From Shigella phage Shfl2: DNA of 64,000 nt. The notes under the pieces are model-generated. The model ran no database searches, was not told where the DNA came from, and saw nothing but the letters and a program-made list of their open reading frames with translations. A program made the position numbers and the translations under genes. Of the stretch, positions 2,617 through 5,188 are shown in pieces (position 1 is the stretch's first letter; each line of letters begins with the position of its first letter). Location: sequence record HM035025; one strand, 5' to 3'.

Positions 2617-3183
2617 TTATTTACCCAGTTTAGTTATTATAGCTTCGGCAGCAGCTTTTAGCTTAGATGCAGTGTTAATACGATTTTTAATTTCAGTATA
2701 CGCATCGCCAAGAACATCAAGGCTATCTGAATAAACACTTACACTATTGCGTTCACTATTTGAAATAGAACCTTTAGTTTTACGATCAAAATCGGTGTAC
2801 ACGTCTTGAAGATCGCGGGCTGCCTTCTTTGCATCATCCAATGCATCAAGAGCTTTATTCAAAGCATTAACATATTTTTTAGTGTCAAACATATTCTTAG
2901 AAATTTTGACGGGTGCGCGTTCAGGAGTAGCTAAGGCAGATTTAGGAAGAACCTGTTTGCCAGATGCCAGTTTCTTAGAAATTTTAAAAAACGCTTTATT
3001 GAAATTATTTTCTTGACTCATCGTAAAAGAACTATTATCAATGTTATACATTTCAATAGCTTTAGCTTTCCACTTAAGAAAATCGCCCCGGTCTTTTGGG
3101 TCCAAGTGGAAGAATACTTTAGTAAGTTCTGCTTCAGATGGTAATTTTGCTGCTTCGGTTAAAAATTCGGCATAGGTTTTCAT
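2617..3183 (-). CDS. Internal head protein with capsid targeting sequence (IPIII-like), 188 aa
   Basis: N-terminus MKTYAEFLTE matches the T4 internal-protein CTS (MKTYQEFIAE, cleaved by gp21 after E); ATG at 3181-3183. Confidence 0.7.
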   Translation of the reverse strand: MKTYAEFLTEAAKLPSEAELTKVFFHLDPKDRGDFLKWKAKAIEMYNIDNSSFTMSQENNFNKAFFKISKKLASGKQVLPKSALATPERAPVKISKNMFDTKKYVNALNKALDALDDAKKAARDLQDVYTDFDRKTKGSISNSERNSVSVYSDSLDVLGDAYTEIKNRINTASKLKAAAEAIITKLGK

Positions 3184-3275
3184 TTAAAATCCTTGAAATA
3201 ATTTATCGGTCGGTTATTAATTATTTATTTATTACTTTGTTATTATCCGTAACAGCATTCTCTATGTGATTCAAA

Positions 3276-3305
3276 CTAAAAAGCCCCAACCTTTCGGTCG
3301 GGGCT
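3276..3305 (-). terminator. Rho-independent terminator at distal end of tRNA/stable-RNA locus
   Basis: Minus strand reads AGCCCCGACC-GAAA-GGUUGGGGCU followed by UUUUU (GNRA tetraloop). Confidence 0.6.
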
Positions 3306-3600
3306 AAGCCTTGCGGCAACCTTGTCGGGGTTCCACCTGCTAAGGCAAGTGTTTGTACGAAACGCCGGGATTCGAACCCGGTTATTAAGCAGTTGACGCT
3401 ACTCAATATTTTTAAAAGGCCATATCTCGACCATATCCGAACGTTCCGTCAAAAACGCTACTCGGCTTATGGCAAAGATATTTCCTCGAATCGATAATTC
3501 GGTGCGCCGTTTCTGCTGTGATAGTAAAGAATCAGAACACAGTAAAACTGTGGGAGAAACTATACTCCAGGGAACATCAGTCCGACGACTTACCGGTAGC
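3306..3600 (-). ncRNA. Putative small stable RNA(s), possibly equivalent to T4 rnaC/rnaD; boundaries uncertain
   Basis: GC-richer non-coding stretch between an ORF and the terminator; tRNA-like T-arm CCGGGTTCGAATCCCGG on minus strand near 3362-3378; motif GAGUAGCGU occurs twice. Confidence 0.3.
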
Positions 3601-3611
3601 GACCCGGCTTC

Positions 3612-3962
3612 TTAATATTCTTTTAAAGCATCAATATGTTCACGGCGTTTACGCCATAAATCAATTGCTTCATACGCGGATTCAACATTTCGAATTGGAC
3701 GGCATTTATATAAAGATTTGTGATTTTGATATTGTGTAGATAACGGAATTTTATCTAAAAGGTCTTTACGTTCAAAATATTCGTAACCATCTAAACCAAA
3801 TGAACGATTTTTGAGAAATTGCCAATGACCATATTCATTTTCAACATAAATATAATCTGCGTGCTGATAAAGCAAATTAATTATACGTTCAGAAATAACA
3901 GTATCATTATGATTAAAATAGAATGTTAAATCATGAACTACTAAATAAACATTACCTTTCAT
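3612..3962 (-). CDS. Hypothetical protein, 116 aa, between tRNA-Arg and stable-RNA region
   Basis: Track ORF 3612..4010 is TTG-initiated and would overlap tRNA-Arg; ATG at 3960-3962 preceded by GAGGAAAAT. Confidence 0.45.
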   Translation of the reverse strand: MKGNVYLVVHDLTFYFNHNDTVISERIINLLYQHADYIYVENEYGHWQFLKNRSFGLDGYEYFERKDLLDKIPLSTQYQNHKSLYKCRPIRNVESAYEAIDLWRKRREHIDALKEY

Positions 3963-3980: not shown

Positions 3981-4057
3981 TGGTCGAGACAGAAGGATTC
4001 TAACCTTCAACCCACGGATTAGAAGTCCGTTGCTCTATACAATTGAGCTATGCCTCG
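3981..4057 (-). tRNA. tRNA-Arg (anticodon UCU)
   Basis: Hand fold: acceptor CGAGGCA/TGTCTCG, anticodon stem ACGGA/TCCGT, loop CUUCUAA, encoded CCA; T-loop TTAGAAT is atypical. Confidence 0.7.
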
Positions 4058-4061
4058 TATT

Positions 4062-4136
4062 TGGCGGACGTGATAGGATTCGAACCTATAACCAATCGCT
4101 TAACAGGCGATCGCTCTGCCATTGAGCTACACATCC
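4062..4136 (-). tRNA. tRNA-Asn (anticodon GUU)
   Basis: Hand fold: acceptor GGATGTG/CACGTCC, anticodon stem ATCGC/GCGAT, loop CUGUUAA, T-loop TTCGAAT, encoded CCA. Confidence 0.8.
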
Positions 4137-4140
4137 AAAT

Positions 4141-4227
4141 TGGTGGGGAGTGATGGAGTCGAACCACCCGAGTCGCAATGACAATGGATTTACAGTCCAC
4201 ACCGCTACCTCTACGGGATAACTCCCC
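4141..4227 (-). tRNA. tRNA-Tyr (anticodon GUA), long variable arm
   Basis: Hand fold: acceptor GGGGAGT/ACTCCCC, anticodon loop CUGUAAA, long variable arm typical of bacterial-type Tyr, T-loop TTCGACT, encoded CCA. Confidence 0.75.
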
Positions 4228-4236
4228 AAATTAATT

Positions 4237-4311
4237 TGGTGGCCCTGGGTGGAATTGAACCACCATCTGGCGATTATGAGTCGCTTGCTTGAACCTTCCA
4301 GCTACAGGGCC
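4237..4311 (-). tRNA. tRNA with CAU anticodon, probably Ile (lysidine-type) as in T4 tRNA-Ile; Met not excluded
   Basis: Hand fold: acceptor GGCCCTG/CAGGGCC, anticodon loop CUCAUAA, encoded CCA; position corresponds to T4 tRNA-Ile. Confidence 0.7.
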
Positions 4312-4312
4312 T

Positions 4313-4388
4313 TGGTGCTGATTGACGGAATCGAACCGCCGACGTCCTCATTACAAGTGAGGTGCTCTACCTACTGAGCTAAATCAGC
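4313..4388 (-). tRNA. tRNA-Thr (anticodon UGU)
   Basis: Hand fold: acceptor GCTGATT/AATCAGC, anticodon stem CCTCA/TGAGG, loop CUUGUAA, encoded CCA. Confidence 0.8.
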
Positions 4389-4390
4389 AA

Positions 4391-4477
4391 CGGAGGCGAT
4401 AGGATTTGAACCTATGAGTCGCCGGAGCGACTGCCGGTTTTCAAGACCGGTGCATTAAACCACTCTGCCACGCCTCC
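4391..4477 (-). tRNA. tRNA-Ser (anticodon UGA), long variable arm
   Basis: Hand fold: acceptor GGAGGCG/CGCCTCC, anticodon stem CCGGT/ACCGG, loop CUUGAAA, T-loop TTCAAAT; no encoded CCA. Confidence 0.8.
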
Positions 4478-4479
4478 AG

Positions 4480-4553
4480 TCTCCGTGGCAGGATTTGAAC
4501 CTACGACATTCTGCTCCCAAAGCAGACGCTCTACCAAACTGAGCTACACGGAG
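4480..4553 (-). tRNA. tRNA-Pro (anticodon UGG)
   Basis: Hand fold: acceptor CTCCGTG/CACGGAG, anticodon stem TCTGC/GCAGA, loop UUUGGGA, T-loop TTCAAAT; no encoded CCA. Confidence 0.8.
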
Positions 4554-4563
4554 TAAATTAAAT

Positions 4564-4637
<74 letters not shown>

Positions 4638-4642
4638 AAATT

Positions 4643-4729
4643 TGGTGCGAGAAGTGGGACTCGAACCCACAAGGAAATCATTCCGCAGCATTTTAAGTGC
4701 TGTGCCTTTACCAATTTGGCCATTCTCGC
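4643..4729 (-). tRNA. tRNA-Leu (anticodon UAA), long variable arm
   Basis: Hand fold: acceptor GCGAGAA/TTCTCGC, anticodon stem CAGCA/TGCTG, loop CUUAAAA, T-loop TTCGAGT, encoded CCA. Confidence 0.8.
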
Positions 4730-4730
4730 G

Positions 4731-4803
4731 CTGGGAATAAAGGACTCGAACCTTTGCATCCTGGAATCAAAATCCAGTGCCTTACCAACTTGGCTAATTC
4801 CCA
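4731..4803 (-). tRNA. tRNA-Gln (anticodon UUG)
   Basis: Hand fold: acceptor TGGGAAT/ATTCCCA, anticodon stem CTGGA/TCCAG, loop UUUUGAU, T-loop TTCGAGT; no encoded CCA; abuts tRNA-Leu as in the T4 Gln-Leu pair. Confidence 0.8.
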
Positions 4804-4900: not shown

Positions 4901-5188
4901 TTACCATTTATGATGATACATACTTACGATGCATTCAAGACCCAAAGGATTCTTGAAAATATCATATTCAAGAGGACCTTTTTCTGTTTCAATAAAGAAA
5001 TCAAAATTTACTGTATTAAATTTACGGTCTTCCTTTACTAATTTAACTTGAGAAGATGAACGGTCAATGTAAACCTTTTCAACTTCAAAACATGTTAAAA
5101 TGCCATAATCATCGATCAAGGCTTTAGCTGCTTCTTGATCATATTTATATCCATTTTCAATGGATGATACTTTCGCATAAAGAATCAT
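4901..5188 (-). CDS. Hypothetical protein, 95 aa, third gene of early operon in IPI locus
   Basis: Track ORF; ATG at 5186-5188 with AGAGG RBS inside upstream gene; 2-nt gap to upstream stop. Confidence 0.5.
   Translation of the reverse strand: MILYAKVSSIENGYKYDQEAAKALIDDYGILTCFEVEKVYIDRSSSQVKLVKEDRKFNTVNFDFFIETEKGPLEYDIFKNPLGLECIVSMYHHKW

Follow-up and report, generated by a model that had tools for sequence, protein, structure and literature searches.

The window, by which we mean the whole 64,000-nucleotide stretch of DNA analysed here, derives from a T4-like phage (Tequatrovirus). Its minus strand carries ten contiguous tRNA genes between 4803 and 3981, identified by ARAGORN and Rfam, in the order Gln, Leu, Gly, Pro, Ser, Thr, Met, Tyr, Asn and Arg. 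These genes are followed on the same strand by an open reading frame (ORF) of 116 aa (3962..3612), which belongs to phrog_3355, a family entry without an assigned function. Judged from alignment and gene order, the next block on the minus strand, 3612..3278, is the orthologue of the T4 rnaD (species 2 RNA)–rnaC (species 1 RNA)–terminator block that ends the phage tRNA operon. The 5' end of rnaD, placed at approximately 3612, overlaps the stop codon of the 116-aa ORF. The parts of the block are listed in Table 1.

Table 1. Features of the rnaD–rnaC–terminator block and their positions in the window.
Feature	Position	Strand	Remarks
rnaD (T4 species 2 RNA) orthologue, ~112 nt	3501..3612	-	aligns to NC_000866 71053..71171; 5' end approximate
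rnaD 5' hairpin RCCGG-GUCGCUA-CCGGY	3592..3608	-	closing pair A-U, G-C or G.U in 12 sequences
rnaD apical hairpin CACAG-UUUUA-CUGUG	3538..3552	-	within the hypervariable part
Spacer GAAUUA between rnaD and rnaC, 6 nt	3495..3500	-	RAAUUA/UAAUUA in T4-type phages; T4 gap the same
rnaC (T4 species 1 RNA) orthologue, tRNA-shaped	3356..3494	-	139 nt; T4 identity 136/139
rnaC acceptor 5' strand, nt 2-8, CGAUUCG	3487..3493	-	pairs with 3364..3358
rnaC long irregular arm in D-arm position, nt 9-78	3417..3486	-	loop UUGACG at tip; contains repeat copy 1 (3463..3455)
rnaC loop UUGACG, partner of loop CGUCAA (3398..3393)	3447..3452	-	proposed 6-bp kissing interaction
rnaC G74 G75, candidate analogue of tRNA G18 G19	3420..3421	-	co-occurrence with T-loop type
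rnaC variable-arm-like hairpin, 9 bp, nt 88-111	3384..3407	-	loop CGUCAA 3398..3393; contains repeat copy 2 (3404..3396)
rnaC T-arm CCGGG-UUCGAAU-CCCGG, nt 114-130	3365..3381	-	100% paired
rnaC acceptor 3' strand, nt 131-137, CGUUUCG, then tail U-A(CAA)	3358..3364	-	covariation
Structured trailer, rnaC 3' end to terminator	3306..3355	-	50 nt; conserved as well as rnaC
Intrinsic terminator of the tRNA/rnaD/rnaC operon	3277..3305	-	10-bp stem, GAAA loop, U tract

The 861 bases around the locus match 755 phage records at 90-95% identity, mostly T-even phages of Escherichia, Shigella and Yersinia. A BLAST search with 3270-3611 returned 811 phage records, and the match to T4 falls under the feature rnaC. 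In the T4 reference (NC_000866) the same-strand order is tRNA-Arg, rnaD (119 nt), a 6-nt gap and rnaC (139 nt); both RNAs are annotated as misc_RNA/ncRNA, and rnaD is described as "small, stable RNA; species 2 RNA". Aligned with the window, the T4 interval annotated as rnaD plus rnaC showed 93% column identity. For rnaC, 136 of 139 positions were identical, and for the trailer and terminator 75 of 78; rnaD had 96 identical positions of 113/119. Synteny with T4 is kept in that rnaC lies downstream of ten same-strand tRNAs and upstream of the terminator. A preliminary description of this DNA had proposed a stable-RNA locus that might be the counterpart of T4 rnaC and rnaD, and had named an alignment with these two RNAs as a way to check it; both were matched, and the proposal stands. 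Its extent (3306-3600) was correctly placed, but the true element is slightly larger, from ~3612 to ~3278. The position beside tRNA-Arg, which it had given for the T4 RNAs, is true of T4 rnaD. In T4, segB lies upstream of tRNA-Arg and nothing separates tRNA-Arg from rnaD, whereas in the window the 116-aa ORF stands between them.

Several other observations in the preliminary description were borne out. The region is richer in GC than its surroundings, with a G+C content of 0.43-0.47 across 3200-3700 compared with 0.27-0.36 in the flanks. The interval has no convincing ORF, only short, overlapping ones with weak starts. The strong GAAA-tetraloop terminator is present, its stem occupying 3305..3282 and being followed by UUUUU, and the tRNA-like T-arm, CCGGGUUCGAAUCCCGG, occupies minus-strand positions 3381..3365. 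According to the literature, transcription of the T4 tRNA region stops downstream of the species I gene (PMC2330249). When folded, the 50-nt trailer that separates rnaC from the terminator gives three small hairpins, one of them with a GCAA loop (z = -3.5 including the terminator). Taken together, we regard the identity of the locus and its tRNA-like, RNA-level nature as highly probable, an assessment that covers these two points and leaves aside the function proposed below.

Folding of the minus-strand transcript, another check named beforehand, gave a clear result for rnaC and a weak one for rnaD. The minimum free energy (MFE) of rnaC was -50.6 kcal/mol (z = -4.1), and none of 200 shuffled sequences was as stable; rnaD barely exceeded shuffled sequence (z = -1.0). 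A covariance model of rnaC (R1) had rnaC as its sole match in the window, at 151.9 bits. To compare structures we used 24-28 distinct rnaC homologues from at least nine genera of T-even-like phages, collected from GenBank phages, IMG/VR and metagenomes. The comparison supports a model in which rnaC forms a tRNA-shaped four-way junction, composed of an acceptor stem built from both ends of the RNA, a T-arm, a variable-arm-like hairpin and an arm of ~70 nt. The consensus fold has no anticodon arm. Among 24 distinct homologues, 92.1% of cells pair in this structure, compared with 33-50% in slid controls, where the pairing partners were shifted by 1-3 columns. Changes on both sides were found in 16 of 35 pairs, and none of 500 shuffles matched the observed score. 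Applied to just the nine divergent "type B" sequences, RNAalifold recovered the same architecture with 14 of 40 pairs compensatory, and single-sequence MFE folds of both sequence types likewise converged on one architecture. Compensatory changes across genera demonstrate purifying selection at the level of RNA structure and not of a reading frame.

The covariation extends to most parts of the model. In the acceptor stem, the A4-U135 pair of the T4-type sequences is replaced by G4-C135 in 17 other sequences, while the tandem U.U is invariant. The middle pair of the T-stem shows a double change from G-C to U-A, and double changes affect eight of the nine pairs of the variable-arm-like hairpin and each of the five pairs in the long arm's terminal stem. 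Helices P3, P4 and P5 of the long arm are paired in 12-15 of 15 sequences, with covariation; P3, for instance, reads AUAUCU/AGAUAU here and UCGUCU/AGAUGA, CUGUCU/AGAUGG or UGCCU/AGGCA in relatives. Nucleotides 79-87 are predicted to form an A-rich single strand. The three substitutions that separate the rnaC of the window from that of T4 are all structure-neutral: a G.U to A-U change in P4, one bulge base, and a U-A to U.G change in the variable-arm hairpin.

The preliminary description had also reported a repeated motif. Both minus-strand copies of GAGTAGCGT were found, at 3463..3455 and 3404..3396, 59 nt apart; these are the only two copies in the 64-kb window, where 0.21 were expected and two were reached in 1 of 100 shuffles. 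The copies are real, but they are not a repeat unit, being the 5' strands of two different hairpins. In the T4-type sequences the two copies of GAGUAGCGU are accounted for by these hairpin strands; the hairpins carry complementary 6-nt loops. The motif was missing from the more distant "type B" homologues. The loops UUGACG and CGUCAA themselves are complementary in all 24 sequences. In three Klebsiella-phage (Marfavirus) sequences they read UUGGCG and CGCCAA, a double change from A-U to G-C that also occurs in L142 and L147. We provisionally propose that the two loops would form a kissing interaction; the covariation amounts to one evolutionary event, in the Marfavirus clade.

A second tertiary contact is suggested by G74 and G75, which are located directly 5' of the 3' strand in the D-like stem. 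The GG dinucleotide is present in all sequences with a T-loop beginning UUC, and is replaced by CG in three sequences (L003, L023 and L099) whose T-loops begin UGC (UGCAUCC or UGCAUGC). In these three, which represent one or two lineages, G74/U120 has changed to C/G, while G75 and C121 are invariant. The pattern would mirror the G18-psi55 and G19-C56 contacts of the tRNA elbow. This assignment is also provisional, as it depends on few independent events.

rnaC is far more widespread than rnaD. It was found in Tequatrovirus, Mosigvirus-type phages, Karamvirus, Winklervirus, Gelderlandvirus, Moonvirus, Kanagawavirus, Marfavirus and unclassified Straboviridae, and the hosts of further phages that carry it include Enterobacter, Serratia, Salmonella, Citrobacter, Kosakonia, Klebsiella, Edwardsiella and Cronobacter. 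In Karamvirus, Winklervirus and Gelderlandvirus, rnaC begins 5-7 nt past the tRNA-Trp CCA, and tRNA-Gly follows a few nt beyond its 3' end; a start just after tRNA-Trp (5-7 nt past the CCA) is also seen in the unclassified Citrobacter phage Ursula. Family members are 137-141 nt long and differ by 1-nt indels. They fall into two sequence types, which agree at both ends, in the loops and throughout the 3' half and are wholly different at nt ~13-73. Searches of 5,426 E. coli genomes and of 185,579 genomes representing bacterial and archaeal species gave no match to rnaC. Pattern scans of IMG/VR, a metagenome scan and a covariance-model search of ~1.1 Mb of fetched loci yielded a few extra copies from T-even-like phages and no relatives outside that group. 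One weak match (L168, 18.5 bits) was considered as a distant relative and rejected as unconvincing.

rnaD is confined to E. coli-type T-evens. The copy in the window is near-identical to that of T4 over the 5' ~45 nt and the 3' ~25 nt and unrelated to it over the apical ~45 nt; it is a T2-type variant, the phage T2 copy being 96% identical. At least four unrelated apical variants occur among T4-type phages. The consensus structure combines the 5' hairpin with a long, irregular stem, and compensatory changes were seen at 5 of the 23 pairs; nt ~24-30 join the 3' end in a basal stem, and the middle of the stem shows some covariation. We also considered rnaD as a tRNA-like RNA and rejected this, as it lacks a T-loop, does not conserve the 3' CC (some copies end in ...CACA) and folds weakly.

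The species 1 and 2 RNAs of T4 have been known since the 1970s. Both are cut from a polycistronic tRNA precursor of ~1.75 kb and accumulate in infected cells. The rnaC/rnaD locus is thus already known, and its presence in a T4-like genome is no surprise. According to the classical literature, T4 mutants that lack the entire tRNA region remain viable on laboratory strains, so any role of rnaC or rnaD would be dispensable or host-specific. A 2010 review lists the roles of RNAC and RNAD as unknown and states that no trans-acting T4 sRNA has been characterised (PMC3014915). In a 2022 omics study they are late RNAs "of yet unknown functions"; a Northern blot of T4-infected cells with an RNAC probe detected RNAC and validated its late class (PMC9697503). 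The full-text literature searched, which extends to 2026, contained no functional study of either RNA.

One recent observation bears on rnaD. Phage BW1 on E. coli ECOR34 acquired a single convergent SNP in rnaD, and virulence rose from 0.17 to 0.98 (PMC12685909). The hypervariable tip of rnaD and the BW1 SNP point toward an accessory, host-dependent role. The rescue of BW1 on ECOR34 by one convergent change would also fit a reading of rnaD as a determinant of host range.

We hypothesized that rnaC uses its tRNA-like parts and its other parts for different purposes. It would keep exactly those parts of a tRNA that are recognised by RNase P, by 3' exonucleases and trimming enzymes, and by T-loop enzymes. 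The acceptor/T-arm stack and the elbow argue that rnaC is excised and stabilised by the host tRNA machinery, and from these retained parts we consider it very probable that it is excised in this way and stable. With no anticodon arm, rnaC would not decode. The conserved core that is foreign to tRNAs, consisting of the kissing arms and the A-rich strand, would presumably be its working part. Our tentative reading is that the non-decoding rnaC, either by mimicking a tRNA or as a structured, "tRNA-scaffolded" module, binds a tRNA-recognising protein in an accessory, host-dependent role. The partner could be a host or a phage protein; rnaC might, for example, counter a host factor or be sensed by one. 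A host-specific interaction of rnaD is conceivable as well, though somewhat doubtful.

The main rival explanation, which we regard as unlikely, is that both RNAs are tRNA-derived relics that serve only in cis, as RNase P entry sites, as protection for the 3' end of the transcript or as spacing before the terminator. Both do lie inside the polycistronic tRNA transcript, rnaC stands between two tRNAs in other genera, and the searched literature reports no function; moreover, an acceptor/T-arm minihelix is a known minimal RNase P substrate. A cis-only processing role does not explain, however, the conservation of the extra domains. The ~70-nt arm, the complementary loops, the A-rich linker and the candidate GG/T-loop contact are kept through compensatory changes across at least nine genera, so that selection exceeds the needs of a cleavage signal. 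The detection of RNAC by Northern blot in T4-infected cells and the late classification of RNAC and RNAD (PMC9697503) also speak against this explanation, as does the altered host performance associated with the rnaD point mutation (PMC12685909).

Regulation of phage or host mRNAs by base pairing, possibly through Hfq or ProQ, appears quite improbable. The RNAs are small, abundant and close to a terminator, the trailer and terminator end in a U tract, and the literature loosely uses the word "regulatory". Yet nearly all conserved nucleotides of rnaC are engaged in intramolecular pairs, the sole conserved unpaired run is approximately AAAAU, and the two conserved loops are complementary to each other. 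Mature rnaC and rnaD also lack the terminator hairpin, and the absence of any characterised trans-acting T4 sRNA (PMC3014915) weighs in the same direction.

That rnaC is a real but unusual tRNA, be it tRNA-Phe(GAA), a tRNA-Sec-like molecule or a "tRNA-OTHER", is very hard to sustain. Some annotation favours it: in some related GenBank records rnaC is labelled "tRNA-Phe" or a hypothetical protein, Enterobacter phage KKP_3262 has a 96-nt "tRNA-Phe(gaa)" over the 3' two-thirds of rnaC, and phage G9062 has a "tRNA-OTHER". The Rfam scan suggested in the preliminary description did not lead to an identification, Rfam 15 having no matching family; the only alignment nearby was to tRNA-Sec, at 16.6 bits, far under the gathering threshold of 47. 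ARAGORN called neither a tRNA nor a tmRNA at rnaC, and the Rfam tRNA model (RF00005) gave no match there at its gathering threshold or at E <= 10. The labels in KKP_3262 and G9062 arose because gene callers used an alternative 8-bp acceptor, ACGGAACG/CGUUUCGU, in which nt 46-53 pair with nt 131-138; the tRNA-Sec alignment from Rfam points to this acceptor as well. We rejected this pairing: it shows no double change, is broken in type B, and is paired in 83.3% of cases compared with 85.6% in shuffled columns. The nucleotides that such an acceptor requires form a covarying hairpin instead, and mature T4 rnaC begins 45 nt upstream of the would-be acceptor.

Two further candidates derived from tRNAs were rejected. 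An origin of rnaC by recent duplication of a tRNA gene of this phage was dismissed, as the similarity is limited to the T-loop. Nucleotides 76-87 (CCUUUUAAAAAU) resemble CUUUUAA, the anticodon loop of tRNA-Lys(UUU), and rnaC was considered as a mimic of this tRNA that would act as a decoy of PrrC, an anticodon nuclease; this was discarded because only GCCU...AAAAU is conserved and the UUUU portion differs among family members both in sequence and in length. Having no anticodon arm, being undetected by ARAGORN and RF00005, and resembling the phage's own tRNAs only in the T-loop, rnaC is best described as tRNA-shaped and not as a tRNA. Its canonical features are a 7-bp acceptor stem, with two invariant U.U mismatches, that is stacked on a T-arm with a T-loop. 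The canonical N-CCA 3' end is not among them: the tail reads U-ACAA in the window and in T4, and U-CCA is encoded in the Klebsiella-phage copies. With U-ACAA in place of U-CCA, full tRNA-like recognition of the end is uncertain.

A protein-coding function for ORF 3221..3406 (-), or for the 48-aa and 73-aa ORFs of the plus strand, is extremely improbable. Automatic annotation places "hypothetical protein" genes here in many related genomes, but these ORFs have TTG or GTG starts, overlap one another and cross the terminator, the family members differ by 1-nt indels, the substitutions are pairwise compensatory, and the T4 products are RNAs. The preliminary description had already called ORF 3221..3406 an artefact of the structured RNA, and we agree: it is 61 aa long, begins with TTG, spans both the T-arm and the terminator, has no Pfam match, and its stop-free stretch is missing in two of the homologues (L037 and L118). 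Equally remote is a repeat-type RNA such as a type III antitoxin mimic (ToxI-like) built on the repeated GAGUAGCGU, since the two exact 9-nt copies 59 nt apart, and the phage-encoded pseudo-ToxI RNAs that reportedly exist, are outweighed by there being only two non-tandem copies and no array of ~34-36-nt repeats, by the loss of the motif in type B homologues, by the different structural contexts of the copies and by the absence of any matching Rfam family.

We retain the tentative reading of rnaC as a non-decoding, tRNA-shaped RNA that would engage a tRNA-recognising protein. A more specific version of it seems rather unlikely to us at present: the tRNA-like parts of rnaC would serve excision and stability only, its kissing-loop core would bind a host factor directed at tRNAs, for example a defence nuclease that the core would block or by which it would be sensed, and rnaD would be a determinant of host range shaped by an arms race. 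If this were true, species 1 and 2 would turn out to be RNA elements that act against host defence or trigger host immunity.

Of the phage non-coding RNAs to which no function has been assigned, rnaC and rnaD belong to those known for longest. Neither is represented by an Rfam family, and automatic annotation of genomes routinely mistakes the region for hypothetical protein genes or an aberrant tRNA. The comparative model of both RNAs supplies concrete mutations to test, and covariance model R1 is a by-product that can be used for annotation; the classification of the locus is unchanged by the structure model and R1.

Some other RNAs are built on comparable lines. The bacterial Y-RNA-like YrlA and the tRNA-like RNAs of MHV68, a gammaherpesvirus, are non-decoding mimics of the tRNA elbow and acceptor that are handled by tRNA-processing or tRNA-modifying enzymes, and those of MHV68 are virus-encoded. 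Neither is known to have a sequence relationship to rnaC, and the termini of YrlA form a Ro-binding stem and not an acceptor. Compared with class II tRNAs, rnaC lacks the anticodon arm, has an insertion of ~60 nt in place of the D-loop, and carries a tandem U.U in its acceptor and the tail UACAA. It shares with them the 7-bp acceptor on a 5-bp T-stem, the UUCGAAU loop, a long hairpin directly 5' of the T-arm and the location of the gene among tRNA genes; a GG that covaries with the T-loop may be a further point in common. tmRNA is much larger than rnaC and, unlike it, has the G3:U70 pair (3:70 is A-U or G-C in rnaC), a tag reading frame and a ring of pseudoknots. The tRNA-like domain of tmRNA nevertheless has the design that our model gives to rnaC, in which an acceptor and T-arm are assembled from both ends of the RNA and a large insertion foreign to tRNAs takes the place of the D and anticodon region.

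Departures from the canonical rnaC T-loop (UUCGAAU in T4) were found in three homologous phage loci, L003 (Serratia phage LC53), L023, and L099, where the loop reads UGCAUCC or UGCAUGC. In all three, the odd T-loop is accompanied by CG in place of GG next to the D-like stem, at the proposed elbow partner of the loop. In locus L008, whose variable-arm hairpin and upstream tRNA flank match those of L003, both UUCGAAU and the GG are kept. A second variant carries an encoded CCA: rnaC ends in ...CGUUCCGU-CCA in six loci from Klebsiella Marfavirus-type phages (L120, L121, L125, L131, L142, and L147). In the three annotated Klebsiella records (L120, L121, and L125), rnaC lies outside the tRNA-Trp/tRNA-Gly slot, either downstream of tRNA-Met or without a nearby tRNA gene, and is overlapped by automatic ORF calls. 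No encoded CCA was present in the Ser, Pro, and Gln tRNA genes of the window.

A weak candidate, in L168, shares GGGUUCGAGGA, GCCUUAU, and GGCGUUCC with rnaC, and its T-arm carries a 25-nt insertion. The match to R1, the covariance model of the rnaC family, is probably due to chance, because the locus was picked by a pattern containing those shared motifs.

Annotation of the rnaC/rnaD region is inconsistent between public records: some place a tRNA there, some "hypothetical protein" genes (one to four), and others nothing. A 96-nt "tRNA-Phe(gaa)" is annotated at rnaC in Enterobacter phage KKP_3262 (L004, 1504..1599), the region is labelled "tRNA-OTHER" in phage G9062 (H98), and rnaC or rnaD is labelled in only a few records (T4, RB68, Aplg8, and RB3). 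Rfam 15 contains no family for either RNA.

Features around rnaC and rnaD, with the L168 candidate
Feature	Location	Strand	Remark
188-aa ORF, downstream of terminator	window 2617..3183	-	phrog_2280
Trailer, rnaC to terminator	window 3306..3355	-	
116-aa ORF	window 3612..3962	-	phrog_3355
T4 late-promoter-like box TATAAATG	window 3703..3710	-	7/8 match
tRNA cluster, ten genes	window 3981..4803	-	
T4 late-promoter-like box TATAAATA	window 5142..5149	-	exact
Weak rnaC candidate	L168 286..433	+	1.3-kb IMG/VR contig; model R1 18.5 bits

The trailer is as conserved as rnaC itself (75/78 identical to T4, counting the terminator) and forms three small hairpins, one of them capped by a GCAA loop; a terminator-bearing fragment of ~80 nt could persist once rnaC is excised. 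The 188-aa ORF gave a sub-threshold match to Pfam cytochrome b562 (17.7 bits, cut-off 30), which is probably not meaningful. Of the late-promoter-like boxes, TATAAATG lies within the 116-aa ORF, ~90 nt upstream of rnaD, while TATAAATA precedes the tRNA cluster by ~340 nt. One or other box might have a part in the late accumulation that has been reported for RNAC and RNAD.

The 116-aa ORF, which has no Pfam match, sits as an insertion between tRNA-Arg and rnaD, its stop codon overlapping the conserved rnaD start. It is common to many relatives (L029, L030, L101, L112, and L116), whereas in T4 this slot is empty. The tRNA set also differs from that of T4: the ten genes include Met, Tyr, and Asn, and both tRNA-Ile and the segB homing-endonuclease gene are absent.
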